From Patescibacteria group bacterium (GTDB lineage: Bacteria; Patescibacteriota; Minisyncoccia; Phycocordibacterales; JACOZG01), in assembly GCA_034658935.1 (NCBI GenBank), contig JAYEGE010000010.1, positions 3,903 to 67,902 on the forward strand: a stretch of 64,000 bases of DNA, read 5' to 3'. The notes beneath the pieces were generated by a model. That model ran no database searches. It was not told where the DNA came from and saw only the letters and a list, made by a program, of their open reading frames with translations. Made by a program: the position numbers and the translations under genes. This document shows, piece by piece, positions 2,274-51,241 of this stretch; the first letter of the stretch is position 1; every line of letters begins with the position of its first letter.

Positions 2274-3415
2274 GCCCACTTATTTCTGTCAAACAATTAA
2301 GTAGCGAGGAACTCAAGGGTAAGCGAGTGCTTTTGCGCTCCAATCTTAATGTTCCTGTCAATGCAGGTGAGGTGGTGAATGCCTTCCGCCTGGAGAAGGC
2401 TCAGCCCACCATTGAGTGGCTGATTGAGCGGGGGGCCAAAGTATTACTCTTAGGACATTTGAGTCGCCAAGATGGTAGCTTGCGTCCAGTTGCTGAATAT
2501 TTTAATAGATCTTTTCCTACCAGCTTTATTGAATCGATCGATGACCTAGACACCTTCGCTGATAAGTCCGAAGCGGTGGTGGTTTTGGAAAATCTGCGTC
2601 ATCGACCTGGCGAGATAGCTAACGATCCAGAGTTCGCTAAGCGCTTAGTGTCTGTTGGCGATCTTTATGTTAATGATGACTTCACTGTTTCCCATCGTCG
2701 CCATACCTCAATTATTGGTTTACCAACTCTCCTGCCTAGTTATGCTGGTCTTGGTTTTGTAGACGAGGTTGAGCATCTTTCTGTTGCCCTGGAGCCAGAG
2801 AAGCCCTTTGTCCTTATCCTTGGTGGTGCTAAGTTCGATACTAAAGTGCCTCTGGTCAAAAAGTTTTTGCCACTTGCCGATAGGATTTTTATTGGCGGCG
2901 CTTTGGCCTCTAGTTGGTTGAAAGTAAGCGGTAAGGAGGTCGGCTCTTCCTTGGTTGATAATGATTTAGAGATACTCAAACCTTTTTTGTCGGCTGAGCA
3001 GATCATGGTTCCTGTCGATGTGATTATCAAGACGGCGAACGATGAAATAAAGATGGTTGGGGTTGACGAGGTGCCCGCTGATGCAAGTATTGTCGACATT
3101 GGGCCGAAGTCTTTGAGAGTTTTGGCCGCCGACTTGAGTGGAGCCAAAACTATTCTCTGGAACGGCCCTTTGGGTTATTTCGAAGAAGGTTTTTCAACCG
3201 CGACAGAAGAATTGGCTCACACTCTTTCAGATAGTCAGGCTAAAACAATAATTGGTGGCGGTGATACTGTTGCCGCGATCGAGGGACTTAAGCTAATGGA
3301 TAAATTTACCTTTGTCTCTACTGCTGGCGGTGCGATGCTTGATTTCCTGGCCGACGGCGCCCTGCCAGGCATCACCGCCCTGAAAGAGAGCCAACAAAAA
3401 TTCAATATCAAATAA
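2270..3415 (+). CDS. pgk: Phosphoglycerate kinase
   Basis: Contains RSNLNVP, ILGGAKFDTK (the GGAKV motif) and GGGDT. Length is 381 aa. It is translationally coupled to tpiA. Confidence 0.9.
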   Translation: MSPLISVKQLSSEELKGKRVLLRSNLNVPVNAGEVVNAFRLEKAQPTIEWLIERGAKVLLLGHLSRQDGSLRPVAEYFNRSFPTSFIESIDDLDTFADKSEAVVVLENLRHRPGEIANDPEFAKRLVSVGDLYVNDDFTVSHRRHTSIIGLPTLLPSYAGLGFVDEVEHLSVALEPEKPFVLILGGAKFDTKVPLVKKFLPLADRIFIGGALASSWLKVSGKEVGSSLVDNDLEILKPFLSAEQIMVPVDVIIKTANDEIKMVGVDEVPADASIVDIGPKSLRVLAADLSGAKTILWNGPLGYFEEGFSTATEELAHTLSDSQAKTIIGGGDTVAAIEGLKLMDKFTFVSTAGGAMLDFLADGALPGITALKESQQKFNIK

Positions 3416-3934: not shown

Positions 3935-5725
3935 ATGGCTAAGAAATGGCGGCTTTTACCGCAAAAAGAGGGGGATCTACAGAGTCAGCTACTCGCTAAT
4001 CGCGGCCTATCTAAGGGTGAATGGGGTGATTGGCTGGAGCCGAACTATGAGCGAGATGTCCACGATCCCTTCTTAATGAAGGATATGGACAAGGCCATTA
4101 AACTGGTTCTTGAAAGTGTGGAGCGCGGCGATCGGATCGCCATCTTTGCTGACTATGATGCTGACGGAGTGCCGGGTGCGGTGATCCTGTCAGAATGGTT
4201 AAAGCGAGTTGGTCATACTAATTACGAAGTTTATATTCCTCATCGTCATGAAGAAGATTATGGGCTCTCTATCAAAGCGATAGAGGGATTGGCGGCCAAT
4301 GGCTGCAAGATTTTAATTACTATTGATTGTGGGATTACTAATGTTGCTGAAGTGGCGCGAGCTAAGGAGTTAGGAATGAAAGTTATTGTTACTGATCATC
4401 ATCTCTTATCGGATACGGTTCCATCCGCAGATGCAATTCTTAACCCCAAACAAGCGGACGACGAGTATCCGGAAAAAATGCTCTGCGGCGCCGGAGTCAT
4501 TTTCAAATTGGCGCAAGGACTACTAAAGGCCACAACGAGTGGGGCAGATTTTCGCGGCTTTACCCTAAAGGGCTCCCTGCCCGAAGTTGCTACATCGTCG
4601 CAGGCGGGCGACGCCGAGTCTCCGCCGCCCACCAAAGCAGATGACGCCAAGTCTGCACTCGCGTTTGGAAAATGGCTGCTCGACTTAGTGGCGATTGCTA
4701 CCGTTGGCGACATGGTGCCATTGCGTGGTGAGAATAGGGCCCTAGCTTATTTTGGTCTTAAGGTATTGCGCCGCACTCGTCGCCCTGGGCTCATTAGTCT
4801 CTACCGCCTATTGCGCCTGGACCCAACGCATCTTACTGAAGATGATATTGGTTTCTCGATTGCTCCGCGGATTAATTCGGCCAGTCGGATGACTCATGCC
4901 GAAGAGGCTTATGAGCTCTTGAGTACCGCTGACCCGGCTCGAGCGATGGTCCTGGCCGAGCATTTAGAAAAAAAGAATAAGGAACGGAAGCAATGGGTGG
5001 AGAAGATTCTACAAGACGAAGCGGTGCTGGAAATTGCCCAGCAGGACTCGCCGGTACTGGTGGCGGGGAGTGAGGATTGGAACTTGGGTGTGTTGGGTTT
5101 GGCCTGTGCTCGCTTGGCGGAAGAGCATTATCGTCCCGTCTTCCTTTGGGGTAAGAATGGTAGTGGGTTAATAAAGGGCTCTTGCCGTTCAGATGGCAAT
5201 ATTAATGTGGTTGAATTGATGAAGGGCGCCGCTGAGGGCTTATTTGCTAAGCAAGGTGGCCATGCGATGGCGGGTGGCTTCTCCGTCACGCCTGAGCGCT
5301 TGGGCGAGTTGTCTGATGAACTTAATAAGTCTTACGCCAAGTTAACTGCCGGCTCTGACGAGATTGAGGAAGCAGAATTGCCACTCGATTATGTTTTGCG
5401 GCTGGCTGATATTAATGAAGACACTAATGCTCTGGTCTCCGCCCTCGCTCCTTACGGGATGGGTTTTAATAAGCCGCTCTTCTTATTGTCGCAGGTTAAA
5501 TTGCTGGGGCGGCGCAGTTTCGGGGCCACTAATAATCACTTAGAGCTAACGGTGGGGGATGGTGAGTTTTCAGTTAAGGCGGTGGCCTTCTTCCAAGCGA
5601 ACACCTTCACTGATATTTTAAATAATCACTCGATGCTCGACTTGGCTGTCCACTTAGAAAAGAGTTATTTCCGTGGCCGCCCCGAACTCCGTCTCCGCCT
5701 CACCGACCTCCGCCCCTCAGGCTAG
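3935..5725 (+). CDS. recJ: Single-stranded-DNA-specific exonuclease RecJ (DHH/DHHA1 family)
   Basis: Contains IFADYDADGV (DHH motif I), VTDHH (DHH motif) and a C-terminal DHHA1-like region. Length is 596 aa. Confidence 0.85.
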   Translation: MAKKWRLLPQKEGDLQSQLLANRGLSKGEWGDWLEPNYERDVHDPFLMKDMDKAIKLVLESVERGDRIAIFADYDADGVPGAVILSEWLKRVGHTNYEVYIPHRHEEDYGLSIKAIEGLAANGCKILITIDCGITNVAEVARAKELGMKVIVTDHHLLSDTVPSADAILNPKQADDEYPEKMLCGAGVIFKLAQGLLKATTSGADFRGFTLKGSLPEVATSSQAGDAESPPPTKADDAKSALAFGKWLLDLVAIATVGDMVPLRGENRALAYFGLKVLRRTRRPGLISLYRLLRLDPTHLTEDDIGFSIAPRINSASRMTHAEEAYELLSTADPARAMVLAEHLEKKNKERKQWVEKILQDEAVLEIAQQDSPVLVAGSEDWNLGVLGLACARLAEEHYRPVFLWGKNGSGLIKGSCRSDGNINVVELMKGAAEGLFAKQGGHAMAGGFSVTPERLGELSDELNKSYAKLTAGSDEIEEAELPLDYVLRLADINEDTNALVSALAPYGMGFNKPLFLLSQVKLLGRRSFGATNNHLELTVGDGEFSVKAVAFFQANTFTDILNNHSMLDLAVHLEKSYFRGRPELRLRLTDLRPSG

Positions 5726-5771
5726 GCATAAAATGTTCGAAGTTGAATTTCCAACATTGAGCCGCAACTGT

Positions 5772-5802
5772 CAACTGTTCAGAGCTCGGCTCTGAACAGT
5801 TG
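5772..5802. repeat. Hairpin CAACTGTTCAGAGC-TCG-GCTCTGAACAGTTG. It is copy 1 of the TTCAGAGCTCGGCTCTGAA family.
   Basis: A perfect 14-bp inverted repeat around TCG lies just downstream of the recJ stop. A near-identical element occurs at 40333-40367. Confidence 0.8.
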
Positions 5803-5863
5803 GAATTTAGATCCGCTGCCACGGATCCACAAGTGACTAAAATCGTAGGCACCTACTCTGAAT

Positions 5864-7485: not shown

Positions 7486-8997
7486 GTGATTATGGCGTCT
7501 CGATATGTTCTTGGTATCGCGCTCGGTTTTTTCAGTGGGGTTATTTTGGCTACCTGGTGGGGTGGCATTGATTGGGCCCTAGCTGGTTTCCTGGTCTTGG
7601 TATCTCTGGTGTTACTCGCTACTCGTTACTTGGTCAGCGATAGGCCGCGGCTCTTTCTCTGTTTAGCATTGATATTAATTGGTGTAGCGCTCGGCGCAGG
7701 CCGTCTATGGTTAAATTTCGATGACACCTATCTGAAATTGGCCTCGCAGGCAGACCAGAAGGTGCAATTAGAGGGGGTAGTGGTGGAGGAACCGGACCAA
7801 CGAGATGATTATACTCGTTTGATTGTCCGCCTAAAGGACGAAGATTTTAAAATCTTAATCACTGCCCCACTCTACCCAACCTATCGTTATGGTGATGAGC
7901 TGGCGCTCACTGGTAAGCTGCGCCGCCCAGAGAATTTTACCGGTGACGCTGGGCGAGAATTCGATTACGTTAATTACTTGGCTAAGGATGATATTCGTTA
8001 TCAACTCTACCAACCAGGGGTAACTCTTCTGGCCCGCGACCAAGGTAATTGGTTGAAGGGCGGCTTACTTAAAATAAAGGGCGCTTTTCTGGGGCGAGTT
8101 AATTTAATCCTCCCTGAGCCGGAAAGCTCGCTCTTGGCTGGCCTACTCTTGGGCACTAAACAATCTCTTGGTAGTGAGTGGCTAGAGCGTTTCCAAATAG
8201 CTGGTGTTTCGCACATTATTGTCCTCTCTGGTTATAACGTTACAATCATTGCCGACAACCTTATTAAGTTCTTTGCTTTTATTCCCGCCTTACCCCGAGC
8301 GGCCGGTTGGTCGCTTGGTGGGTTATCCATAATTCTCTTTGCCATTATGACTGGCGCCGGGCCCACTGTGCTTCGCGCTTCTCTGATGGCGCTTATTGCT
8401 CTCTTTGGTCGAGCAACGGGGCGGGTTTACGATGCTAGTCTGGCTCTCCTCATTGCCGCTTTAATGATGGTGCTCATCAACCCCCAGATTCTGGTTTACG
8501 ATATCGGCTTCCAACTCTCTTTCTTGGCCACTCTCGGTTTAATTTATCTTTTGCCGGCTTTGGAACGTAGTTTTTCTTGGTTGGCCCCAAGAAAGGTTAT
8601 GAAAATTATGCGGACTTGGTGGGCCTTAGTCCGAGAGGGGATTCGTTCTATTGCTGTCTCTACTATTGCCGCTCAGATTGCTGTCCTGCCCTGGCTGCTC
8701 TATAAGATGGGAATCCTTTCTTTCGTTGCTTTGCCGGCCAATCTCCTCATCCTTGCTTCTATTCCCTTAACTATGTTCTTTGGTTTATTCGCTGGTTTAC
8801 TTGCTTTCATCTCCACCTGGTTGGCCTGGCCCTTTGCCCTCCTGGCCCACGCCTTTCTCTCCTACCAATTATTAGTCGTCCAATTCCTTTCTGACATTCC
8901 CCTCGCCGCCATCAACATCCCTCTCTTCCCTTGGTGGGCGGCTGTTTTGGCCTATGTCCTGCTTGGTTATTGGATCGCTAGACCGAAATTGCCCTAG
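7486..8997 (+). CDS. comEC: ComEC/Rec2 competence protein, N-terminal part (DUF4131 plus competence membrane domain)
   Basis: A multi-TM protein with GVSHIIVLSGYNV (ComEC competence-domain motif). It ends at a stop 20 nt before the separate MBL-domain ORF, which is in a different frame. Confidence 0.75.
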   Translation: MIMASRYVLGIALGFFSGVILATWWGGIDWALAGFLVLVSLVLLATRYLVSDRPRLFLCLALILIGVALGAGRLWLNFDDTYLKLASQADQKVQLEGVVVEEPDQRDDYTRLIVRLKDEDFKILITAPLYPTYRYGDELALTGKLRRPENFTGDAGREFDYVNYLAKDDIRYQLYQPGVTLLARDQGNWLKGGLLKIKGAFLGRVNLILPEPESSLLAGLLLGTKQSLGSEWLERFQIAGVSHIIVLSGYNVTIIADNLIKFFAFIPALPRAAGWSLGGLSIILFAIMTGAGPTVLRASLMALIALFGRATGRVYDASLALLIAALMMVLINPQILVYDIGFQLSFLATLGLIYLLPALERSFSWLAPRKVMKIMRTWWALVREGIRSIAVSTIAAQIAVLPWLLYKMGILSFVALPANLLILASIPLTMFFGLFAGLLAFISTWLAWPFALLAHAFLSYQLLVVQFLSDIPLAAINIPLFPWWAAVLAYVLLGYWIARPKLP

Positions 8998-9875: not shown

Positions 9876-10065
9876 TTGCTAAGTGCTTATTGGCCTTGAT
9901 GCACTTGGTACAGATACGAGCTCGGCCGCCTGCGGGTAGGGTGACCCATTGGAGATTAACCTGACGGCGGCGTTTGCCGGTCGGGTTGAATTTAGTGGCA
10001 CGGACGCGGTTGGAATATCCGCCTCCTACTTGGCTAGTTTTGGCGCAAGTCAGACAACTTTTCAT
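9868..10065 (-). CDS. rpmB: 50S ribosomal protein L28 (Zn-ribbon C+ form)
   Basis: Contains CLTCAKTSQVGGGYSNRVRATKFNPTGKRR...RICTKCIKA, matching L28 with two Cys pairs. The start was trimmed to the internal Met of the 77-aa ORF. Confidence 0.8.
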   Translation of the reverse strand: MKSCLTCAKTSQVGGGYSNRVRATKFNPTGKRRRQVNLQWVTLPAGGRARICTKCIKANKHLAIK

Positions 10066-13920: not shown

Positions 13921-14148
13921 TCAAGACGCTGACTCGAGCTCGCTTTCGAGGCAACCAAAGCCGTGATCCTCGCCCATGAATTCGATCACATACTCGGGTA
14001 CGTCGCTCGCCCACTCCTTCCTTGGTTTGCATCTCCGGATCTCGCATTTCTTCCCGTCGTTCTTGGTGATCCCAGAGCTACCTCGATTGGTGAAAACACA
14101 TATTTGGCCCACTTTGAGGCGGTGTTCCCGGGGCATCCTTCTGATCAT
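13921..14148 (-). CDS. Small Cys-containing hypothetical protein (75 aa)
   Basis: It has a strong Shine-Dalgarno (AAAGGAGAT, 6 nt before ATG), which is unusual in this window. It is convergent with fusA across the bidirectional terminator. No family recognised. Confidence 0.45.
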   Translation of the reverse strand: MIRRMPREHRLKVGQICVFTNRGSSGITKNDGKKCEIRRCKPRKEWASDVPEYVIEFMGEDHGFGCLESELESAS

Positions 14149-14305
14149 TTCGGTATCTCCTTTCTGGGTTGTATATTAGTCTTTATCTGACCCTTGTCAA
14201 CGGGCTGTAATTATCCCTTGGTCAATACGTTTATAGGGTATATGATGAATTGAGGGTAAGAACCCTATATTATCGTCATTTTTACCAGATTAATCGTTCA
14301 ATTAT

Positions 14306-15325
14306 ATGAATAAAGCTATTTATTGGTTATTTGTCCCGGCGCTTGCTCTTGCTATGGCAAGTACGGCCTCGGCTCAGACCGGCAATCAGGATATCGCAAA
14401 CTCGATTACTAGTATTCCTGGATCGGGGATAGTAAGTCCAGATTCCAACGGTAATTGCCCTAGTGCCTACCAAAAGTCTGGGGATGTTTGCATTAAGCCA
14501 TTACCCACTAATGCATCTAGTAATGGCGGCGGAGTTGTAGGTGACGGCTCGCCAGGGAATCAGTCTAGTCAGTCTGGCGGTAGTGCGGGGCACGGAAACA
14601 GTAGCCAGCCTCAAATGTTGCCTACGGTCATTGGTTCTGGCCAATTCACTGTTGCGCCAAACTCTGAGGGTAATTGCCCTGAGGGTTACAAGACTGGAGC
14701 GAATGGCAAGACCTGCTTGAAGCCATCTATAAGCGTTAGCGAGAGCAGCGATGTGAAGATTGTGATCGACTCTGGCCAGATCTCCATTGAAGATGCAGCC
14801 AAATTGCCCCCTAAACCTAGCAGTTCCAGTGGTGGTTCCGGTGGTGGAAAGAAAGCCACTTTCCAGACCCAAACTAGAACTAATGCCGGTATCCAAACTG
14901 TAGTCAGTGTTGGTATTAGCTCAGGTGGGTCTGGTAGTGGCGGTGCCAAGCAGGTGAATGTGGAGGTAGTTGATGGAGGGGTTGTTATTACTGAAGGCGA
15001 TCAGGTAGTTCCCACCGAAGTAAAAGTGGAGATCGCTGATGGCAAGATCAAGCTCGGTAAAGACAAGGGAGAGCTCAAGGTCTTACCTTCCGTGGCTTCT
15101 GAGAAGGCTGTTGCTGTCTTGGGCGAAAAATACGATAGAGTAGAGTTGAAAGAGGTTGGTAATAAGGAAACAGCCTATGTTTTTGAGAAGGATGTCGAGG
15201 AGAAGTTCCTCGGCCTCTTCAAGATTAAGGTTGTCTCGAAGGTCAATGTGAGGACGGAGTCTGGTGCTGATGACATCTCCACTCTCAAGGTCAAAAAGCC
15301 TTGGTGGAGCTTCCTGACTTTCTAA
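14306..15325 (+). CDS. Secreted Gly/Ser-rich protein with signal peptide and duplicated NGNCPxxYxxG...C(I/L)KP Cys motifs
   Basis: N-terminal MNKAIYWLFVPALALAMASTASA signal. Contains the repeats SNGNCPSAYQKSGDVCIKP and SEGNCPEGYKTGANGKTCLKP. Composition is low-complexity G/S-rich. Confidence 0.6.
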   Translation: MNKAIYWLFVPALALAMASTASAQTGNQDIANSITSIPGSGIVSPDSNGNCPSAYQKSGDVCIKPLPTNASSNGGGVVGDGSPGNQSSQSGGSAGHGNSSQPQMLPTVIGSGQFTVAPNSEGNCPEGYKTGANGKTCLKPSISVSESSDVKIVIDSGQISIEDAAKLPPKPSSSSGGSGGGKKATFQTQTRTNAGIQTVVSVGISSGGSGSGGAKQVNVEVVDGGVVITEGDQVVPTEVKVEIADGKIKLGKDKGELKVLPSVASEKAVAVLGEKYDRVELKEVGNKETAYVFEKDVEEKFLGLFKIKVVSKVNVRTESGADDISTLKVKKPWWSFLTF

Positions 15326-16720: not shown

Positions 16721-17083
16721 ATGTCAGCCACAGCCACTAAAACTAAGAAAGCATCCAGTAAGGCCGATATGACTGATTTCCAGAAGATGAGGATTCGAGT
16801 CTCGGCCTATGAGTCGAAGATTCTAGACGCTAGTGTTAAGCAAATCGTCGATACTGCCATTCGTTACGAGGGCACTCTTCACGGGCCAGTACCTTTGCCA
16901 ACTGAAGTAAAGAAGTACACGGTCAATCGCAGCTCCTTTGTTCACAAAAATGCTCGGGAACAATTCGAGATGAGGACTCATAAGCGCTTGATCGACATTC
17001 TTAATCCTAGCGCTAAGATTATCGAGAGTCTAACTAACCTAACTCTACCGTCGGGGGTCAATATTGACGTCAAGCTAATGTAG
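16721..17083 (+). CDS. rpsJ: 30S ribosomal protein S10. The true start is probably an internal Met near 16769-16787.
   Basis: MRIRVSAYESKILD matches S10 QRIRIRLKAFDHRLID. The ORF has an N-terminal extension relative to the ~102-aa norm. Confidence 0.88.
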   Translation: MSATATKTKKASSKADMTDFQKMRIRVSAYESKILDASVKQIVDTAIRYEGTLHGPVPLPTEVKKYTVNRSSFVHKNAREQFEMRTHKRLIDILNPSAKIIESLTNLTLPSGVNIDVKLM

Positions 17084-17114: not shown

Positions 17115-17732
17115 ATGAAATTTATCTTGGGTAAAAAAGAGGGTATGACGCAAGTCTTCGACGGAGAAGGCCAGGTTTGGCCTGCGACCGTTTTCACTGT
17201 CAGCCCGGCGACTATTACTCAGCTGAAGACAGTCAAGAGGGATGGATACGATGCCCTGCAATTAGGCTTTGGTGAGCATCGCGTTAAGCATGTTGCCAAG
17301 TCGCAGCAGGGTCACTTCAAGAAGGTAGGAGATACCTTATTTCGTCACTTGCGCGAGGCGCAGGTGGACGAAGGCTCTGAAGCCAAGGTTGGTGATCAAT
17401 TTGGCGTAGGCGATATGTTCGCTGAGGGCGATATGGTGACCGTCTCTGGTGTTTCGAAGGGGAAAGGCTTCCAGGGGGTGGTAAAGCGCCATGGTTTTCA
17501 TGGTGGGCCACGATCTCATGGCCAGAAACATACTGAGCGGGCCCCAGGTTCCATAGGCGGGGGCATGGCTAGGGTGATCAGGGGTCGGCGTATGCCTGGT
17601 CGTATGGGTGCCGATAGGGTGACGGTTAAGAATCTCATAGTTCTTCAGATTGATAAGGATAATGATCGTCTATTGATCTCGGGAGCGGTCCCAGGGCGGA
17701 GAGGGACCATGGTAGAAATAGCGGGTAAATAA
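17115..17732 (+). CDS. rplC: 50S ribosomal protein L3
   Basis: L3 family sequence; position after rpsJ. Confidence 0.93.
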   Translation: MKFILGKKEGMTQVFDGEGQVWPATVFTVSPATITQLKTVKRDGYDALQLGFGEHRVKHVAKSQQGHFKKVGDTLFRHLREAQVDEGSEAKVGDQFGVGDMFAEGDMVTVSGVSKGKGFQGVVKRHGFHGGPRSHGQKHTERAPGSIGGGMARVIRGRRMPGRMGADRVTVKNLIVLQIDKDNDRLLISGAVPGRRGTMVEIAGK

Positions 17733-20095: not shown

Positions 20096-20446
20096 ATGAA
20101 AGCTGAATTAAAAAATTATCGTCAATCTCCCCGCAAGGTGCGCCTGGTAGCAGATTTAATCAAAGGCCAAACGGTGCCGGCGGCATTGGAGCAATTAGAT
20201 TTTCTCGCCAAGCGGGCGGCCGGGCCTATTTCTAAGTTACTCAAATCGGCAGTGGCTAATGCCAAGGAGGGAGATAAAGACCAAAAAGACAAGAAGAATA
20301 GCAAGAAGGATGTCTTGGTGGTTGGCAATATCCGAGTTGATCAGGGGGCAACCCTAAGGCGCTCCCGACCACGGGCGCGTGGATCGGCCTATCGTATTAA
20401 TAAGCGGACTAGTCATGTCCAGGTCACCCTGGAACGCAAGTTCTAA
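20096..20446 (+). CDS. rplV: 50S ribosomal protein L22
   Basis: L22 family; operon order. Confidence 0.9.
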   Translation: MKAELKNYRQSPRKVRLVADLIKGQTVPAALEQLDFLAKRAAGPISKLLKSAVANAKEGDKDQKDKKNSKKDVLVVGNIRVDQGATLRRSRPRARGSAYRINKRTSHVQVTLERKF

Positions 20447-20465
20447 TCTGAGTTTTTATTTTATT

Positions 20466-21140
20466 ATGTCTCACAGCGTCCACCCATATGCTCACCGCCT
20501 AGGAATAATCCGTGATTGGCAATCGCGCTGGTTTGCTCGTTCCGGTTCGGGCGAGTATCAAAAATGGCTCCGGGCAGATGTGCTGTTGCGGGAGTGGCTG
20601 TCTAAACGCCTCCGCGGTAATTTTGTTAAAGCGATAGAGATTGAGCGCGGTGCTACTCATATGCGTGTGATCGTCAAGACTTCTCGTCCGGGTATGGTTA
20701 TTGGCCGCAACGGGGAGAATAGCCAAAAATTACGCCAAGACATTGTCCATTTTTGGCAACAGCGGAAAATCGATCCACCCCAGGAGCTAAAATTAGACAT
20801 TGAAGAAGTTAAGAATCCAGAGTCGCATGCTCAGATTGCTGGCCAGATGATTGTTGAGGGGCTGGAGCGACGCTTCCCCTTTAAGCGAGCCGCCCGACAG
20901 GTAATAGAGAAGGTAATGGCCAATAAAAATGTTCAGGGAGTGAAAGTAACCCTCTCTGGCCGTCTGGGGGGGGCAGAGATGAGTCGCTCGGAGTCCTTCA
21001 AGAAGGGTAATTTACCTCTTCAAACTCTGCGTGCCGACCTAGACTTTGCCAAGGAGACCGCCTATTTGCCTTATGGTGTTATTGGCGTTAAGGTCTGGAT
21101 CTATCGGGGTGAGGTCTTCGGTAAAGAAACCAAAAGTTAA
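20466..21140 (+). CDS. rpsC: 30S ribosomal protein S3
   Basis: MSHSVHPYAHRLGIIRDWQSRWFA matches the S3 N-terminus. The start was trimmed to the internal Met of the 20379 ORF. Confidence 0.9.
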   Translation: MSHSVHPYAHRLGIIRDWQSRWFARSGSGEYQKWLRADVLLREWLSKRLRGNFVKAIEIERGATHMRVIVKTSRPGMVIGRNGENSQKLRQDIVHFWQQRKIDPPQELKLDIEEVKNPESHAQIAGQMIVEGLERRFPFKRAARQVIEKVMANKNVQGVKVTLSGRLGGAEMSRSESFKKGNLPLQTLRADLDFAKETAYLPYGVIGVKVWIYRGEVFGKETKS

Positions 21141-42580: not shown

Positions 42581-42880
42581 TTATTTTTTGTGCTGTTTGT
42601 TAAACCTCGGGGCTTCTTTGCCGATAATCCGTTTTTCTATTTGTAGGGCTTGGGGCTTGTTCTCTACCTGAGCAACCTTGAACTTAGTCCCGCCGGGGAT
42701 GTGATCTTTCTTGAACTGTAGATGGTTTGTGAGGCGCTGTTGCACGTTCCCCCTACCTGCCACTCCGGTATACAGGTTTTCCCCGGCATTGTTAGTAAGC
42801 TCGTATACGATCGTTTTGTTTTTGGGCACTTTTGCGACGTTGGTTTTGTCGAACTTTTGTGGGCGGTTAAATTTGATCAT
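42581..42880 (-). CDS. Small GIY-YIG (URI-domain, YhbQ/COG2827-like) nuclease-domain protein
   Basis: IVYELTNNAGENLYTGVAGRGNVQQRLTNH matches the GIY-x10-YIG-x8-R-x2-H pattern, plus a downstream conserved Glu region. Confidence 0.5.
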   Translation of the reverse strand: MIKFNRPQKFDKTNVAKVPKNKTIVYELTNNAGENLYTGVAGRGNVQQRLTNHLQFKKDHIPGGTKFKVAQVENKPQALQIEKRIIGKEAPRFNKQHKK

Positions 42881-42961
42881 AGTGTGGATAAGTTATTTAC
42901 ATTACTAATATTGTTTGCTAACATTCAAAATATAGCATATAGAAAATAAATAGCAAACTTA

Positions 42962-43618
42962 ATGCTTACTAAGAAACAAAAAAGCGTTTTTGACTACATT
43001 AAGCGGTATGCGGAGAAGAATGAATATGCTCCCTCCCTCGAAGAGATCCAGGGGCATTTTAAGCTCGCCTCTGTCTCAACGGCCTTCTATTACATCAATA
43101 GGTTGGTGGAGGGCGGGTACCTAAAGCGAGAGGCCCATCAGGCTAGGTCGATAAGTGTCCAGCCAGATGAGGTGATTAAGTCAGCCCTTCCAAAACAGAT
43201 AAAATCCTTTTCTGTTCCAGTGCTTGGTTCGGCCAATGCTGGCGAGGCAGTCTTACGTGCAGAAGAAAATATTGAAGGGCATCTCAGGGTCTCTCGTCGT
43301 ATATTAAGTGGGAAAGACGGAGTCTTCGCTCTGCGTGTTAAGGGTGATTCAATGAACAGGGCAAAAATAGATGGTAAAAATCTTGAAGATGACGATTTCG
43401 TGCTCATTGATTCGGAGTATAAAAGTCCCAGAGATGGTGACTATGTCTTGTCTGTTATAGAAGGCCATGCCAATCTCAAGAAATTTAAGCGAGACGGTAA
43501 AACTGGTCAAGTTACGCTTATTTCTGAGTCGACGAATACCAAACACAAACCGATTTTTATTTCTGGCGACGATGATTTTATGATAAATGGTAAAATAATA
43601 AGTGTGGTGAAGAAATGA
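42962..43618 (+). CDS. lexA: LexA-like repressor (winged-HTH plus S24 peptidase domain)
   Basis: N-terminal LTKKQKSVFDYIKRY...SLEEI (LexA DNA-binding domain), VKGDSMN (Ser nucleophile) and NLKKFKR (Lys). Its stop overlaps the MTase start (ATGA). Confidence 0.8.
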   Translation: MLTKKQKSVFDYIKRYAEKNEYAPSLEEIQGHFKLASVSTAFYYINRLVEGGYLKREAHQARSISVQPDEVIKSALPKQIKSFSVPVLGSANAGEAVLRAEENIEGHLRVSRRILSGKDGVFALRVKGDSMNRAKIDGKNLEDDDFVLIDSEYKSPRDGDYVLSVIEGHANLKKFKRDGKTGQVTLISESTNTKHKPIFISGDDDFMINGKIISVVKK

Positions 43619-44769
43619 CTTTTATGAAGAAGAATATAACCCACAAACTCGCCGAATTATTTTCAGGTCCTGGCGGTTTATCGCTAGGTATTGTTTCTGC
43701 TGAAGCGGAAGATTTGGGGGGCAGGAAATATAGTGTAAGCTCGCTTTGGGCAAATGATATAGATGAGGATTCCTGCAATACTTATGCGAAAAATATACAT
43801 AATGGCGATAGAACCAACGTTTTATGCTCCCCAGTTGAAAAAATTGATTTTAAAAAGGTGCCAAAATTTGATGCACTCGCTTTTGGATTTCCGTGTAATG
43901 ATTTTAGTATAGTGGGAGAGCAGAAGGGTTTCGGTGGTAAGTATGGACCTTTATACACCTACGGTGTAAAAGCAATAAAGGAACACAACCCCAAATGGTT
44001 CATTGCTGAAAACGTCAGTGGCCTGCAAAGCGCAAACAATGGTGATGCTTTTGGGAAAATACTCGACGATTTAGAAAATGCGGGGAATGGATACGTACTT
44101 ACACCCCATCTATATAAATTTGAGGAGTACGGTGTTCCTCAGACGAGGCATAGAATTGTCATAGTCGGCATAAGAAAAGACCTCGGTCTTGAATTTAAGG
44201 TACCGACTCCCACTACTTTAGATGGATACGTTACGGCTAAGTCGGCCATTGAAGAACCGCCAATCTCAGAGTCTGCTCAAAACCACGAGCTTACAAAGCA
44301 GGCAAAGATTGTTGTAGAAAGGCTGAAACATATCCCTCCAGGCGAAAATGCCTGGTATGATGGTTTACCTGAACACCTAAGGCTCAACGTAAAATCTGCA
44401 CGTATGAGTCAAATTTATAAACGACTACATCCCAAGAAACCGTCATACACGATAACGGGAAGTGGCGGTGGGGGAACACATGGGTATCATTGGACAGAGA
44501 ATCGTGCCCTTACAAATAGGGAGAGGGCTCGCATTCAGACCTTTCCTGACAGTTTTATATTTGATGGCTCTAAGGAGAGTGTGCGAAAACAAATAGGCAT
44601 GGCCGTACCGGTCAGGGGGGCGAAGATTATCGCGGAGGCCGTGCTTAAAACTTTTGCGGGCGTTACTTATGAATGGATTCCACCCAGAATAACAAATGGT
44701 AACGGTCGTGATAAAAGTAATACTAAACAGACACCACTGTTTAATAAAACTGACCTACAGCCTGTTTAA
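43615..44769 (+). CDS. DNA (cytosine-5)-methyltransferase
   Basis: Motif I LFSGPGGLSLG, motif IV FGFPCNDFSIVG (PC dipeptide), motif VI ENV, and a C-terminal TRD. Confidence 0.9.
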   Translation: MTFMKKNITHKLAELFSGPGGLSLGIVSAEAEDLGGRKYSVSSLWANDIDEDSCNTYAKNIHNGDRTNVLCSPVEKIDFKKVPKFDALAFGFPCNDFSIVGEQKGFGGKYGPLYTYGVKAIKEHNPKWFIAENVSGLQSANNGDAFGKILDDLENAGNGYVLTPHLYKFEEYGVPQTRHRIVIVGIRKDLGLEFKVPTPTTLDGYVTAKSAIEEPPISESAQNHELTKQAKIVVERLKHIPPGENAWYDGLPEHLRLNVKSARMSQIYKRLHPKKPSYTITGSGGGGTHGYHWTENRALTNRERARIQTFPDSFIFDGSKESVRKQIGMAVPVRGAKIIAEAVLKTFAGVTYEWIPPRITNGNGRDKSNTKQTPLFNKTDLQPV

Positions 44770-45591
44770 AAGTTCCCGCCAACTTTTTTTATCTCGGTGA
44801 AGTCGGCCCGATTTGATGACGTATCTGTGGCCGTCGAAAGTTTGACCTGGGATAGAGGTTACTTTCTCAAGTTCATCCTTGTAACAATATCCTGCTATTT
44901 CGCACGGGATATTACCTAGATCAGGAATATCATTCTTGTATTTGTCATAGTGCGGTTGACCTGAGACAAGTTTGGTTATCTCGGACTTTGAGACTCGCAA
45001 TAAATGGTCGTCTTCTAGGGCTGGTCGACAGTATATATAAACGTCAGAGCTTCTTTCGGGTATCTCGACCTCGTTCCCGCCCAGTACGAGGTACGCACTT
45101 TTGGGCTTGGATGATTTAATGCCTACTCCTATTGAGGGTTCTACCCATTTGCTCCTTTTTAGCACTTTTGTTATATCTTGCGGAACAATGTTGGGGTGTA
45201 TATCAAAATCTAGCTCTACGCTGACGTTAAATTTCTGTTTAAAAAATTTTTGAACAGCAATCTCGCCCAACTGTCCCTTTACCCAATTTGTAACTTTTTG
45301 ACCAAATTCCCTGATTCTACTGGTGCCCCAATCAGAAGTTACATATCCTCTAAAATGTTGTGCTAACACAAAGTCCATACATCTGGCGTAGTCATCCCTA
45401 TCGAGGGCGATAGTCCTTTGGTCGTAATCTTTTCTCCATTCTTCCAGATCGGTTTTATTAAACGTAAATCTACCTCTTCCCGCTCTGGGTAGTGGAGTTA
45501 TCTCGTCCGCATTTTTGAAGTAATTCTCAAAAGTTTTCTCGTCTAGTTCGAGAAATTTCACGGCTTCTTTTTTAGTCAAGATATCTGGCAT
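44755..45591 (-). CDS. Putative restriction endonuclease with an N-terminal excisionase-type HTH (HTH_17-like)
   Basis: It is convergent with and overlaps the 3' end of the C5-MTase gene. The N-terminus LTKKEAVKFLELDEKTF...RFTFNKTDLEEWRK resembles the phage Xis/MerR-type HTH. The C-terminal domain is unassigned. Confidence 0.45.
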   Translation of the reverse strand: MPDILTKKEAVKFLELDEKTFENYFKNADEITPLPRAGRGRFTFNKTDLEEWRKDYDQRTIALDRDDYARCMDFVLAQHFRGYVTSDWGTSRIREFGQKVTNWVKGQLGEIAVQKFFKQKFNVSVELDFDIHPNIVPQDITKVLKRSKWVEPSIGVGIKSSKPKSAYLVLGGNEVEIPERSSDVYIYCRPALEDDHLLRVSKSEITKLVSGQPHYDKYKNDIPDLGNIPCEIAGYCYKDELEKVTSIPGQTFDGHRYVIKSGRLHRDKKSWRELLNRL

Positions 45592-45825
45592 AACAATACA
45601 TTTGTAATTTTCACTATGCCCGATTCCCGTCGATTTTTCAAGCTACTCTCTCGTGACGGCACAGCCTGGTCTCGCATTTGGGCGGACGCTTCGCTATCTC
45701 ACTCGCTACGCCCCGGCATATGCGGCTCCGCTCTTTCAAAACCCACGGTTTTGAATAATTTCCTCCACGGGGAACTCCCGTTCCCCGACCCCCTCCCTGG
45801 TTCGATTCCGCCCATCTCACTGCTT

Positions 45826-45863
45826 TTTTCTTTGAAAAAACAAAACACCCCAGCAGGGGTGTT
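45826..45863 (-). terminator. Rho-independent terminator downstream of tmRNA (ACACCCC-UGCU-GGGGUGU plus U-run on the minus strand)
   Basis: A GC hairpin followed by TTTTGTTTTTT on the minus strand. A second hairpin CCCCTCGAT..ATCGAGGGG lies at 45896-45925. Confidence 0.7.
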
Positions 45864-45926
45864 TTGCGCTGAAGCTACGGAGTGCCGCGCACCGCGAAGC
45901 CCCTCGATAGTAATCGAGGGGCGAAG

Positions 45927-46349
45927 TGGTGGAGATGGGCGGAATCGAACCGCCGTTCAAATAGTTGTTGTAAGAGAATCTACGTGTGTAGCTAGTTTTT
46001 TGTTTTAAGCTCAGTACCTATAAAGCCAGCAAAACAATACTGAGCCGGACCTCTAAGTTTTCGGATCCTTAGCGAGATAGACTAAGGGACCTAGCTCGCG
46101 AGAATTACACTCTAGTCCGCGGCACGAGCGCCTGACGGGTAGAATGCCTACTTAAGCCTACAACACTAAAAGTGTCGGCCGGCGCTGAAAGCGCTTAGGC
46201 TAAAGCGAAAGCAGGGGTGAAGTATGGCGAAGCCACACCTCGGTCAGATGAATTGGCATTTATCTGGTTTGCCAACAGGTTTACGAGTCTTTTGGCCTCC
46301 TCGACACGCACACTTAAAACAGGACTACCTGTCTAAGCCGATCATCCCC
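45927..46349 (-). ncRNA. ssrA: tmRNA (SsrA)
   Basis: On the minus strand the 5' end is GGGGAUGAUCGGCUUAGACAGG, a shape comparable to E. coli GGGGCUGAUUCUGGAUUCGACGGG. A PK1-like CGAGGAGGCC...CUCGUAAA is present. The candidate tag ORF is ...GCU UUC GCU UUA GCC UAA (…PAFALA*). The 3' end is GGCGGUUCGAUUCCGCCCAUCUCCACCA, which is T-arm, acceptor and CCA. It lies immediately downstream of smpB. Confidence 0.75.
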
Positions 46350-48542: not shown

Positions 48543-48677
48543 TCCGAATCGGTGTTGCTGTATCGCCCCATCCGCTCTTGCGGGTGGGGCCTTTTGTCTG
48601 ATGGCCATCGGACAATTCGCCGAAGAGGCGTGGTCATTCCCAAAATAACCATTGCCTGCTATAATCAGCCGACTAAG

Positions 48678-50603
48678 ATGAGTACTAAGAAGAGGCGAAG
48701 ACCAAGGGCTCGGCGCTTGCGTGGCGGTCCGTTAGGGCAACTCAGCACCCAATTATTGGGGGTGATTTTGATTTTGATCACTGTGGTGGCGCTTTATTCT
48801 CTTATCGCTGACCAGGGGGAAGAGATGGAGGAGGTGACCTTTTCAGAAGTGGCTCGCCAAGTGTTAGCTGGTGACGTGGCGCAGATCGCCGTCGAGGGCG
48901 ATGAATTAGAAATTGAACTACGGGGTGGCGAGACTCAATTGTCCCAGAAAGAAACAGAATCTTCCTTATCTGAAGCCCTGGCCGCTTACGGCGTTACCGC
49001 TGAGCAATTGGCTATCGTAGATATTGAGATTAAGGGGCCTGGCGGTTTCTCCTTCTGGTTGGTTAACTTGCTCCCAATTATCTTGCCGATTTTCTTTGTC
49101 CTCTTTCTCTTTTGGTTGATTTCTAAACAAATGAAAGGGGCGAGTATGCAGGCCCTCTCCTTCGGCCAATCGAAGGCCAGGATTATTGATCCTAACGATA
49201 CCAAGCAGAGGATTACTTTTAAGGATGTAGCTGGGGTCAAGGAGGCCAAGGAGGAATTATTAGAGATCGTTGATTTCTTAAAGAACCCTAAGAAGTTTTT
49301 AGACATTGGCGCTCGTATTCCCAAGGGAGTGATCTTAATGGGTGCGCCGGGGACAGGTAAGACTCTGTTGGCCCGCGCAGTGGCGGGGGAGGCGCAGGTG
49401 CCCTTTCTCTATCTCTCTGGCTCTGACTTCGTAGAGATGTTTGTTGGTGTCGGTGCCTCGAGAGTACGGGATCTTTTCAACATGGCCAAGAAAATGGCTC
49501 CCTCGATTATCTTTGTCGATGAAATCGATGCTATTGGTCGGCATCGTGGCTCGGGTATGGGCGGCGGCAATGATGAACGGGAGCAGACTCTCAACCAGAT
49601 TCTGGTTGAGATGGATGGCTTTGAGCCGAATCAGAAATTGATTGTAATGGCGGCGACCAATAGGCCAGATGTGTTAGACCCGGCTCTCTTGCGCCCCGGT
49701 CGCTTTGATCGTCGCGTACTCTTAGACAATCCAGATATCAAAGATCGGGAAGAGATCTTGAAAATTTATGCTCGTAAGAAGCCCTTGGGAGAGGATGTTA
49801 ATTTGCAAACTATTGCCCAGCGGACACCTGGCTTCTCTGGCGCGGACTTGGCTAACTTAATGAACGAGGCGGCCATTTTAGCAGCTCGGGAAGACAGAAA
49901 GGAGATCTCTCAATACGATGTTATCCGCAGTGTCGAGAAGGTGATGCTTGGCCCTGAGCGTAAGAGCCATATCCTATCGGAGCGAGAGAAGAAGGTCACC
50001 GCCTACCACGAGATGGGGCATGCCCTAGTCGCTTCTATTCTCGAACATTCTGATCCGGTTCATAAGGTTTCCATTATTTCACGCGGACATGCGGCTGGTT
50101 ATACCCTCAAGCTTCCTTCCGAAGATAAGAAACTTCAAACTAGGCAGGAGTTCCTAGATGATATCGCTGTTTCTTTGGGTGGTTATGCCACTGAGCAAAT
50201 CATTTTTGGCGATATTACTACTGGTGCCTCCAGCGACATATCTGTGGCCACTGATTTGGCTCGCAATATGGTGACTAAGTATGGGATGAGCGACAAGTTG
50301 GGGCCGGTGGCCCTGGGCGCTAGTGAGCGAGCCTTCACCGCTTGGGGCGGTTTGAGCGAACGTCAAGTTTCAGAGTCGGTAGCTTCGGCTGTGGATGCGG
50401 AGGTGTCGCGGATTATGAACGAATCTTTAACTCGGGCTCGAGAAATTTTGACTACCCATCGCGCGGCCTTAGATAACCTAAGTGAGACCTTGATCAAAAA
50501 CGAAACAATAGACCGAGAGGAATTTGAGAAATTATTGACTGCGAATGGTATCCAGCTTAAAGAGAAGGATTGCTTGGCTGCAGATAAGGCGCTGGAGGCT
50601 TAA
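48678..50603 (+). CDS. ftsH: ATP-dependent zinc metalloprotease FtsH
   Basis: Two N-terminal TM helices, AAA Walker A GAPGTGKT, Walker [13 protein letters not shown], and HEMGHA (HExxH). The start was trimmed to MSTKKRRR. Confidence 0.95.
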
Positions 50604-50645
50604 CTTGGCACCAGCAGGCCTCTGAGCTAGGATTAGAGGAGGAGA

Positions 50646-50718
50646 GTGCCCATAGCTCAATGGTTAGAGCGCCAAGCTTATATCTTGGTGGTTCCAGGTT
50701 CGAGTCCTGGTGGGCACA
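50646..50718 (+). tRNA. tRNA-Ile with anticodon UAU (AUA-decoding). No CCA is encoded.
   Basis: Hand-folded cloverleaf. Acceptor GTGCCCA/TGGGCAC, D-arm GCTC-AATGGTTA-GAGC, anticodon stem CCAAG/CTTGG with loop CTTATAT (U33, A37), T-arm CCAGG-TTCGAGT-CCTGG, discriminator A. Confidence 0.7.
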
Positions 50719-50862
50719 TAAAATAAAGGAGACTCATGCGGATGCATGAGATGACTATTATTTTATAGTGCCCACCAGGACTCGAAAGACGGAGCCGGTA
50801 TACAAGACGAGTGAAGCGAGTGCTTGTCGGCGAGTCGGGGTCGAGAGTACTTAGATTTTTGC

Positions 50863-50880
50863 GAATCCGCCGCGGCGGAT
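50863..50880. repeat. Palindrome GAATCCGCCGCGGCGGATGA (copy 2), embedded in a longer TTTTTGC...GCAAAAA inverted repeat
   Basis: Read directly; the same 16-nt core as 47567-47584. Confidence 0.75.
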
Positions 50881-50932
50881 GAAGCAAAAAGCTTAGTAAC
50901 TCGTGACCGAGTTCTGCATAAAAAGAGCGCCC

Positions 50933-51241
50933 CTAGGTTGGGGCGCTGACTGTTTCTGGATCTCCATCTACGACCGGCTCGGTAGTCTCTGCTTTTTCCC
51001 TGGCCGCTACGGCCTTCTCCTCGAGAACTTTCCGGATCTTGTCGGCCTGTACGCGTCCACAGGAACAATGTCCGGTTCCTGGAGTCGCACAGCTGCCGGC
51101 GTGTCCTTCTGGGATTTCTCGCAACTTACACAAAGCTGTACCCAGGAGCAAAAGATTCTGGTCGTCGATCTCCATGTGGCCGATGATATCCACCGCCGCT
51201 TCTAGTATTCTTAAAGCTTGCTGTTGGGCGTCCATGCGCAC
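50933..51241 (-). CDS. Hypothetical Cys/His-containing small protein (102 aa)
   Basis: An ORF divergent from glyA. Contains CATPGTGHCSCG. No confident family. An overlapping ORF on the plus strand makes the call uncertain. Confidence 0.3.
   Translation of the reverse strand: MRMDAQQQALRILEAAVDIIGHMEIDDQNLLLLGTALCKLREIPEGHAGSCATPGTGHCSCGRVQADKIRKVLEEKAVAAREKAETTEPVVDGDPETVSAPT

Follow-up and report, generated by a model that had tools for sequence, protein, structure and literature searches.

A putative integrase-less mobile element behind tRNA and tmRNA genes of Paceibacteria

The tRNA-Ile locus

The window (the whole stretch of 64,000 nucleotides that was analyzed) contains a tRNA-Ile gene with the anticodon UAU at positions 50646-50718 of the plus strand. 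ARAGORN identified the gene, which scores 73.7 bits with the Rfam tRNA model, and CCA is not encoded. A promoter-like site, TTGGCA-17-TAGGAT, lies 5' of it at 50605-50633 on the same strand; this site was found in a consensus scan and is a pattern match only. The neighbors of the tRNA are housekeeping genes, FtsH upstream and serine hydroxymethyltransferase (SHMT) downstream. FtsH places the organism in the Patescibacteria (Paceibacteria), and the best relative has 72% amino acid identity. Between the tRNA and the next gene no open reading frame was found, either for an integrase or a nuclease or for anything else.

The 3' end of the tRNA recurs downstream in inverted orientation. The tRNA segment that extends from the T-loop into the acceptor 3' strand (50699-50717, plus strand), called S here, has a perfect reverse complement at 50768-50786 on the plus strand, the inverted arm. 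The two arms found by a repeat finder are 19 nt long, 100% complementary, and 50 nt apart, and these are the only sites in the 64 kb that match the 19-mer with three or fewer mismatches (0.02 expected). A preliminary description of this DNA had given the repeat as 18 nt, one base fewer. The inverted arm consists of an acceptor part (50768-50774) and a T-arm part (50775-50786). The spacer (50719-50767, plus strand) has A/T-rich complementary flanks and an inner palindrome, CTCATGC-GGA-TGCATGAG, both as described before, and it forms the tip of the long hairpin made by S and the inverted arm. In a terminator scan this spacer hairpin has a terminator-like score on the minus strand only. A stem-loop of about 60 bp had also been proposed. 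The hairpin itself is strongly predicted, since the RNA fold of 50646-50800 has an energy of -82.4 kcal/mol compared to -41.3 +/- 3.9 in shuffles (z = -10.6), but its interrupted stem comprises 38 bp. Its formation would cost the tRNA its acceptor and T stems.

Two further parts of the locus, a conserved core of about 125 nt and a direct-repeat partner, lie 3' of the inverted copy and were missed in the preliminary description. The core, a predicted three-way junction at 50784-50908 on the plus strand, matches covariance model R1 (see below) with 104.9 bits and an E value of 2.8e-27. At 50908-50923 on the plus strand, the tRNA 3' end recurs in local alignment as a decayed direct copy, CGAGTTCTG compared to CGAGTCCTG. 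It consists of a T-arm copy with one substitution, a deletion of 7 nt of the acceptor strand, and then CATAAAA as in the tRNA trailer. The 9-nt remnant (50908-50916) and CATAAAA together give an alignment score of 17, which is reached by 36 of 1000 shuffles (p about 0.04), and the remnant is located exactly where relatives carry intact direct copies of 19 nt. In the fold predicted for the window copy, the T-arm part of the inverted arm pairs with 50909-50916 and thereby closes the element. The order of the element is S, spacer hairpin, inverted S, structured core, and displaced direct S, and S is the template of both the inverted and the direct arm.

A bidirectional terminator-like hairpin is found 3' of the element at 50926-50947 (terminator scan). 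It is the first plus-strand terminator downstream of tRNA-Ile and is taken to be the original terminator of this gene, displaced. Since there is no plus-strand terminator between the tRNA and the element, the two would be co-transcribed.

The tmRNA locus

The window also contains a tmRNA gene of 423 nt with the tag ANSSDRGVASPYFTPAFALA at 45927-46349 on the minus strand, found with ARAGORN and Rfam (140.2 bits) and adjoined by the SmpB gene. As the preliminary description had pointed out, its 3' end has the same arrangement as that of tRNA-Ile. The repeat finder places the 3' arm S at 45932-45951 and the inverted arm, GAGATGGGCGGAATCGAACC on the tmRNA-sense strand, at 45799-45818 (both minus strand). 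These arms are 20 nt long, 100% complementary, and 113 nt apart, with 0.01 such matches expected. The terminator scan shows a strong intrinsic terminator of the tmRNA between the gene and the inverted copy (45840-45867, minus strand).

The tmRNA arm may be followed by one or more degenerate or truncated cores at 45625-45798 on the minus strand. The likeness is at the level of motifs recognized by eye, AGGGAG-GGGGTCG..CGTGGA and GAAAGAGCGGAGC, and there is an 8-nt direct match to S, TCCGCCCA, at 45679-45686. The covariance model with filters off gives only 5.5 bits (E value 0.053) in this place, the fold of the region has a z-score of -0.5 and is no better than shuffles, and no homologue of the region was found in the fetched loci of relatives. 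A canonical core was rejected on these three results. The arm of the tmRNA copy is plain, while a core is possible, at most degenerate, and not demonstrable. Beyond about 170 nt of core-like sequence there are genes for an HTH protein and then a C5-methylase, and this side of the tmRNA looks similar to loci where a later island seems to have pushed the element outward.

A sequence that seemed to be shared downstream of both window loci (CGGAGCCG..AGCGAGTG) was dropped as not significant, with a Smith-Waterman score of 17 compared to 16.8 +/- 2.5 in shuffles and a pattern expectation of 0.93. Among the open reading frames of the window, no integrase was found beside tRNA-Ile or tmRNA, and no distant direct repeat of either 3' end was found within the window.

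Distribution and organization of the element

Relatives of the organism carry the same arrangement with a conserved core. A set of 80 species-representative loci was fetched on FtsH similarity alone, and the neighborhoods of ftsH with tRNA-Ile(UAU) and of smpB with tmRNA are conserved across these loci. Each tRNA and tmRNA in them was screened for copies of its own 3' end. The recurrent order found in this way begins with the gene and a hairpin. These are followed by an inverted copy of the acceptor strand, the T-arm, or both, which ends in ..TCGAA, then by a conserved core, and last by a direct copy that begins with CGA.. within the T-loop. The conserved stretch has the form AGNCGGAG - hairpin - CGAGNCGGGGTCGNGA - hairpin - TCGTGACC. 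The tRNA-Ile locus of the window has exactly this order of arm, core, and arm. The preliminary description named absence from relatives as a refutation of a systematic cause; relatives carry the arrangement, behind 17 kinds of tRNA and behind tmRNA, and this supports its reading as the footprint of an element targeting tRNA-like 3' ends.

The covariance model R1 was built from 15 cores. A search of 1.30 Mb of Paceibacteria loci with this model gave 31 copies, and there were 51 + 19 more in 120 metagenome stretches retrieved with a DNA pattern of the core only, for a total of about 100 copies in Paceibacteria genomes and metagenomes. A tRNA or tmRNA gene lies upstream on the same strand within 1.2 kb in 73 of 95 copies, with a median gap of 58 nt, and the targets cover 17 amino acid specificities besides tmRNA. 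The metagenome loci were retrieved without tRNA information, so that the association with tRNA genes is an independent result. In the element-bearing metagenome loci 39 of the 87 tRNA and tmRNA genes carry an element, and in the tRNA cluster of locus L145 there is one behind nearly every gene.

In nearly all cases the inverted match starts at tRNA position -21 (T-loop sequence TTCGA) and the direct one at -19; the core is thus bracketed by two outward-facing copies of the region from T-loop to 3' end. Perfect direct repeats of 19-21 nt starting at -19 are the rule in relatives. In many copies the acceptor and T-arm parts of the inverted arm are separated by a conserved hairpin. A terminator separates gene and element in most relatives, as it does at the window tmRNA, and expression of those elements would therefore need read-through. 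The arm was also considered as a copy of the tRNA 5' half. This was rejected because the arm of relatives is complementary to the T-loop, to the base facing the G·U pair of tmRNA, and to part of the encoded CCA.

The element family is apparently previously undescribed, as full-text literature searches and Rfam gave no description. A phage or plasmid origin was rejected. A blastn search of 50,697 phage records gave nothing, one of a plasmid collection gave a single chance match of 22 nt, and none of 38 core-pattern matches in viral contigs was confirmed by the model.

Structure of the core

Covariation among the copies points to a conserved three-way junction in the core. In its closing helix the T-arm part of the inverted arm pairs with the direct copy. 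In the window copy a GAAA linker is followed by P1 (50788-50790 with 50834-50836), the P2 hairpin (50794-50831), and P3 (50839-50908). The P1/P2 region has a conserved G-N-A / G-A internal loop, and P3 has a conserved U·U opposition. Folded alone, the window copy adopts the consensus shape (-61.1 kcal/mol, z -4.3). For the 18 modeled pairs in 75 aligned copies, standard pairs occupy 96.2% of cells compared to 77.3% in shuffles, and there are 265 double-change cells compared to 74. Sliding the partner columns lowers pairing to 23-45% and destroys the signal.

The pairing is asymmetric between the strands. There are 106 G·U pairs but only 10 A·C pairs, and one G·U is found in 66 of 74 sequences. 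This excess shows that the fold is formed and selected on the tRNA-sense strand, either as RNA or as folded single-stranded DNA.

No known motif was recognized in the element. Rfam 15 at gathering thresholds reports only the tRNA and the tmRNA in the whole window, and scans of 50700-50960 (E<=10) and of L145 7000-8500 (E<=1) give terminator or long-hairpin noise only. Three candidates were rejected by eye. The junctions do not fit a hammerhead core (CUGANGA/GAAA), the archaeal bulge-helix-bulge intron motif is absent, and a stretch resembling group II domain 5 (GAGCCGTATAC) is confined to the variable P2 of one subfamily. The core is well supported as a new structured nucleic acid motif, with some 100 copies that covary strongly and match no Rfam family.

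Mobility and defense islands

The distribution of the element is patchy. At orthologous loci it is present behind 6 of 68 tRNA-Ile, 12 of 51 tmRNA, and 2 of 32 tRNA-Ser genes. Two contigs with nearly identical flanks have different element subfamilies behind the same tRNA-Cys, which indicates turnover, and two or three elements stand in tandem behind one gene at L029, L107, L108, and L127. Decayed arms and truncated copies are common, and both window copies are among them. A few copies lie upstream, within duplicated 5' fragments of tRNAs, where they interrupt the D-loop or T-loop (L072, L190, L024).

The relationships of the cores do not follow those of the tRNAs. The most similar cores are usually found at different tRNAs, and the closest relative of the window core (84%) lies behind the tmRNA of another genome. 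Ancient vertical co-evolution with each tRNA was rejected on this basis. Identity of the T-stem part of the arm is about 0.5 whether the cores are 57% or 93% identical, and the arms are set by the local target tRNA, not by the phylogeny of the core. In the inverted arms of L185 and L092-Arg, the T-arm part deviates from the local tRNA by a mismatch and fits another tRNA, so that this part can be inherited together with the core.

The direct repeat has one fixed and one variable end. It always starts at the T-loop, and it mostly ends at the tRNA end (19-21 nt) but sometimes runs on for a further 34-102 nt, across the trailer and even into the beginning of an older copy. The spacers of relatives are near-perfect palindromes that differ from locus to locus and are continuous at one border with S and the tRNA end, and at the opposite border with the acceptor part of the arm. 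This continuity suggests that the right half of the spacer was copied from the left on the spot.

Elements are often found at the far end of small restriction-modification or defense islands. In a number of cases the tRNA is separated by 1-5 kb of cargo from a distal element with its direct copy. The cargo includes type III restriction-modification (L155), a C5-methylase with Vsr and RadC (L028), a restriction-modification pair between two 99%-identical element copies (L024), a GNAT acetyltransferase (L113), and a large serine recombinase adjoining the tRNA together with a Schlafen-like ATPase (L185). L185 is the only one of the islands examined that has a recombinase. At L185, L113, and L071 a stub of 4-6 nt of the tRNA end precedes the old spacer. 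The stub suggests that the island arrived later and pushed the element outward, and at these loci island and element look like separate entities.

Proposed mechanism and alternatives

The best reading is that the element is mobile and lacks an integrase; its route of movement we infer. Our preferred account, which we hold to be somewhat more probable than even chance, is that a non-coding mobile element of about 150 nt targets the T-loop of tRNA and tmRNA genes in Paceibacteria and is copied in, leaving the upstream gene intact. The new copy would enter at a break in the T-loop, and the displaced 3' end of the target itself would become the direct copy. The right half of the spacer and the acceptor part of the inverted arm would come from fold-back copying at the hairpin behind the tRNA, while the T-arm part would travel with the core, pair with the direct copy, and close the fold. 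This fold is probably RNA, read through from the strong tRNA promoter, and it may be the template or the recognition structure for a trans-acting enzyme that is not encoded nearby. A replicative route, possibly templated by RNA, is suggested by the variability of the duplication at its far end and by the strand specificity of the fold. If fold-back copying operates, a second copy of the spacer should follow the direct copy. This is seen at L026, L127-Lys, L107-Met, and L096-Met, but not at most loci, where the repeat ends at the tRNA end, which counts against fold-back. Also, the conserved hairpin inside the inverted arm of many copies suggests that those arms were not made by simple fold-back. 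If the element is copied in as proposed, the hairpin of S and inverted arm noticed in the preliminary description would be a by-product.

A more specific version is speculative. The element may be a SINE-like or guide-carrying RNA element, the first in bacteria, but we consider this doubtful. An RNA of about 125 nt, made by read-through from the tRNA promoter, would pair with the T-loop region of tRNA genes through its tRNA-derived tail and/or its complementary arm and be copied in by a trans-acting enzyme, for which a reverse transcriptase, an HUH nuclease, or an RNA-guided recombinase are candidates. In that case the elements may over time seed the tRNA-anchored defense islands of Patescibacteria. 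That the mechanism is categorically new has a low but appreciable probability.

A trans-acting recombinase that works on a folded single strand is a serious rival to copying in, although we regard it as improbable. The element would then be a miniature integrative module, a small circle of S, spacer, inverted S, and core that a site-specific recombinase supplied in trans recombines inside the T-loop. The tRNA gene would be regenerated and its original 3' end displaced as in ordinary tRNA-gene islands, the hairpin of S and inverted S with the core would be a folded single-stranded site like an integron attC or the hairpin attP of CTX phage, and cargo cassettes would build up between the tRNA and the module. 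The direct repeat fits this, since a repeat from the T-loop usually to the tRNA end is the classic identity block of tRNA-gene integration, and the order S, loop, inverted S, body, S would be expected from integration of a hairpin-forming single strand. As with attC sites, the structure is conserved on one strand, the tRNA-sense strand (covariation and G·U/G·T asymmetry), and G·T pairs are likewise tolerated in folded DNA. There are also arrays, and islands whose restriction-modification cargo separates the tRNA from a distal element, among them the L185 island with its serine recombinase and the L024 cassette with its two nearly identical copies. However, the great majority of copies have no recombinase in or beside them, including both window loci, and the islands at L185, L113, and L071 seem to be later arrivals that entered within the last 4-6 nt of the tRNA. 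S would have to be matched beforehand to each of 18 targets, whereas the arms are uncoupled from the relatedness of the cores, and the spacers are specific to each locus. A double-stranded circle of 200 bp is sterically unlikely.

A benefit to the host is less probable still. Here the element would be an RNA of tRNA operons with one of several roles: it might contribute to 3' processing or to termination, serve as a sponge or decoy that imitates the minihelix of acceptor and T-arm, for example against toxins that target tRNA, or pair with the tRNA 3' end as a regulator. The fold conserved on the tRNA-sense strand with its conserved G·U pair and purine-rich junctions is what such an RNA might have, and so is an arm helix identical in sequence to the T stem plus acceptor stem. 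Most copies are co-oriented with the tRNA at the short distance given above, and the density in L145 and in the metagenome loci is high. A host benefit is difficult to reconcile with tandem triplets behind one gene, different subfamilies behind the same tRNA in near-identical contigs, the many decayed and truncated copies, and a predicted hairpin that would unfold the preceding tRNA. Given the patchiness, the tandem copies, and this unfolding, a role in processing or termination, which the preliminary description had also offered, is unlikely. Only 6/68 tRNA-Ile and 12/51 tmRNA loci are occupied, so conservation at orthologous genes fails, and an intrinsic terminator or 3'-processing hairpin was rejected: the spacer hairpin qualifies on the minus strand only, the canonical tmRNA terminator precedes the inverted arm, and tandem copies and cargo are hard to reconcile with a simple signal. 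Finally, the repeats might be due to chance, or to an ordinary fragment of a minus-strand tRNA pseudogene that a conventional prophage or island had left behind, in keeping with the frequency of tRNA fragments beside tRNA genes and with the restriction-modification-like cassette beyond the window tmRNA copy. This is highly improbable and is refuted by the comparative data. The expectation is 0.01-0.02, the order of arm, core, and arm recurs about 100 times, the arm exactly complements the 3' strand and is thus no copy of a tRNA 5' half, and the window has neither an integrase nor a distant direct repeat.

The element has several implications for Patescibacteria. To our knowledge, few mobile elements are recognized in their small genomes, and the family would represent a compact, integrase-less way to colonize tRNA and tmRNA genes without destroying them. 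It also seems to stand at the outer border of small restriction-modification and defense islands. If the rewriting of the arms is RNA-templated or guided by pairing, the family would amount to a programmable insertion system of natural origin whose target, the T-loop, is a universal sequence. The tRNA fragments and long hairpins that the elements create also confuse tRNA annotation and assembly in metagenome-assembled genomes (MAGs).

Comparison with known systems

The element shares features with several kinds of small mobile or structured sequences. SINEs and other non-autonomous retroposons are inserted by target-primed reverse transcription, and we know of nothing SINE-like in bacteria. 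Like SINEs, the element is short and non-coding, has one fixed and one variable junction, and shows target duplications of variable length. The likeness would extend to dependence on a trans-acting enzyme, a structured RNA as the moving entity, and tRNA-type transcription. Unlike SINEs, it has no A-tail and no linked reverse transcriptase, and its inverted target copy has no counterpart in them. REP/REPIN and MITE-type repeats resemble the element in being small, multi-copy, hairpin-forming, intergenic, free of open reading frames, and moved in trans. However, REPINs and MITEs have terminal repeats of their own and no tie to a single class of genes, whereas the element has copies of its target tRNA as "terminal inverted repeats" and the T-loop as its site. 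Identical terminal repeats borne by the element were not found; as noted, arm identity stays near one half irrespective of core identity.

Two systems resemble individual parts. Like the element, the omega RNA (reRNA) of TnpB from IS200/IS605 elements, a transposon guide RNA that takes its guide from the flanking DNA, has a scaffold of about 120 nt followed by about 19 nt of flanking target that changes with the insertion site. In contrast, the element has no tnpB or iscB open reading frame nearby and no Rfam model match, the intact upstream tRNA would itself be a target, and the complementary arm is without counterpart. A guide RNA for a neighboring IscB/TnpB-like nuclease was rejected, as the neighbors are SHMT, FtsH, SmpB, and a DUF6580 protein. 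The primer-binding site of retroviruses and LTR elements is likewise 18-19 nt exactly complementary to a tRNA 3' end. In the element the complement follows the gene and its flank instead of the mature CCA end. At the inverted arm it stops at the acceptor strand and continues with the complement of the gene flank (TTATTTTATA), not with TGG, and there are no LTRs. No reverse transcriptase open reading frame was found in the flanks.

The closest known systems are the islands in tRNA and tmRNA genes, including tycheposon arrays. Islands with tyrosine integrases in these genes have been cataloged by Islander (PMC4383910), and the tycheposons of Prochlorococcus also belong to this kind (bioRxiv 10.1101/2020.12.28.424599). 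As with these islands, insertion takes place in the 3' part of the gene and leaves a regenerated gene. Both window genes are intact by their Rfam scores and precede the element. In relatives the far end carries a displaced partial tRNA as a direct repeat, of which the window has only the 9-nt remnant. Older insertions are displaced outward by further ones, and the cargo consists of defense or restriction-modification genes. Unlike these islands, the element has no integrase, with no open reading frame between tRNA and direct copy, and its minimal unit is about 150-200 nt. It also differs in having a structured core next to the displaced fragment, an extra inverted copy of the target, and a single core lineage that occurs at many tRNAs with arms matched to each.

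Core types and copies of the element

The layout of inverted and direct tRNA arms is common to at least two core types, because a second core family, unrelated to the type-1 core, has an inverted T-arm to its left and a direct tRNA 3' end to its right. This family (..CGATTGAG-hairpin-CCAATCGGGGTACTG..CTGTAAG..) occupies the same frame in five comparison loci from Paceibacteria genomes and metagenomes. It is found at tRNA-Ile (8154-8227) and tRNA-Ser (14545-14633) in L033, at tRNA-Ile (14102-14176) in L024, at tRNA-Val (3330-3403) in L149, at tRNA-Ser (9953-10044) in L019, and at about 2500-2700 in L155. In L092 (9400-10130), two tRNA-Pro genes are followed by 'GGGTGAAGG...GATCCGAGTTCGATTCTCGGCATCCCGA', a T-arm/acceptor piece that derives from another tRNA. 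It lacks the type-1 core and may represent a further class of tRNA-tail insertion.

Some copies of the element are found in unusual positions. At L072 3204-3291 and L190 9299-9386, the copy lies upstream of an intact tRNA whose 5' fragment is duplicated, and it interrupts the D-loop or D-stem of that duplicate. The L072 copy retains a hairpin, TTGAATCTGGG/CCCAGATTCAA, resembling the T-arm of some other tRNA. The only inverted element pair seen is in L201 (621-966). Its two copies share the arm GTCAGGAATCGAA and are arranged head-to-head, one on each strand, with about 100 nt between them.

Islands and neighboring genes

Islands or cassettes adjoin the element in several loci, among them L185 and L024. 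In L185 (354-5902), tRNA-Tyr is separated by a 5.3-kb island from a distal element whose direct copy is a perfect 19 nt. The island encodes a Schlafen/AlbA_2 ATPase and a large serine recombinase (4303-5832); the recombinase gene and the tRNA overlap at their 3' ends. Four nucleotides from the end of the tRNA (GCAC) are kept as a stub ahead of the old spacer hairpin. In L024, two copies of the element plus flank (17201-17536 and 20258-20592; about 336 nt, 99% identical) flank a low-GC 2.7-kb restriction-modification cassette adjoining tRNA-Ser(CGA). Just upstream, the 5' part of tRNA-Ser is present once more as a partial copy (16839-16906, 100% identity) whose T-loop holds an element.

In the window, ftsH is followed by tRNA-Ile with a UAU anticodon (48552-50718). 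Of the 80 Paceibacteria loci centered on ftsH (L002-L081), 68 contain a tRNA-Ile(UAU), and AUA appears to be read by a dedicated UAU tRNA in these genomes. Between the element and glyA is a putative 102-aa ORF (50933-51241, minus strand) without a match in Pfam or PHROG. Its stop overlaps a bidirectional terminator hairpin (50926-50947), and the ORF may be spurious.

Four genes lie beyond the tmRNA-side arm, at 42581-45591: a 278-aa ORF with a weakly HTH_17/excisionase-like N-terminus (44755-45591, minus strand), a C5 cytosine methylase (43615-44769, plus), a LexA-like S24 repressor (42962-43618, plus), and a small GIY-YIG protein (42581-42880, minus). Together they may form a restriction-modification/defense cassette resembling the element-adjacent ones in relatives.
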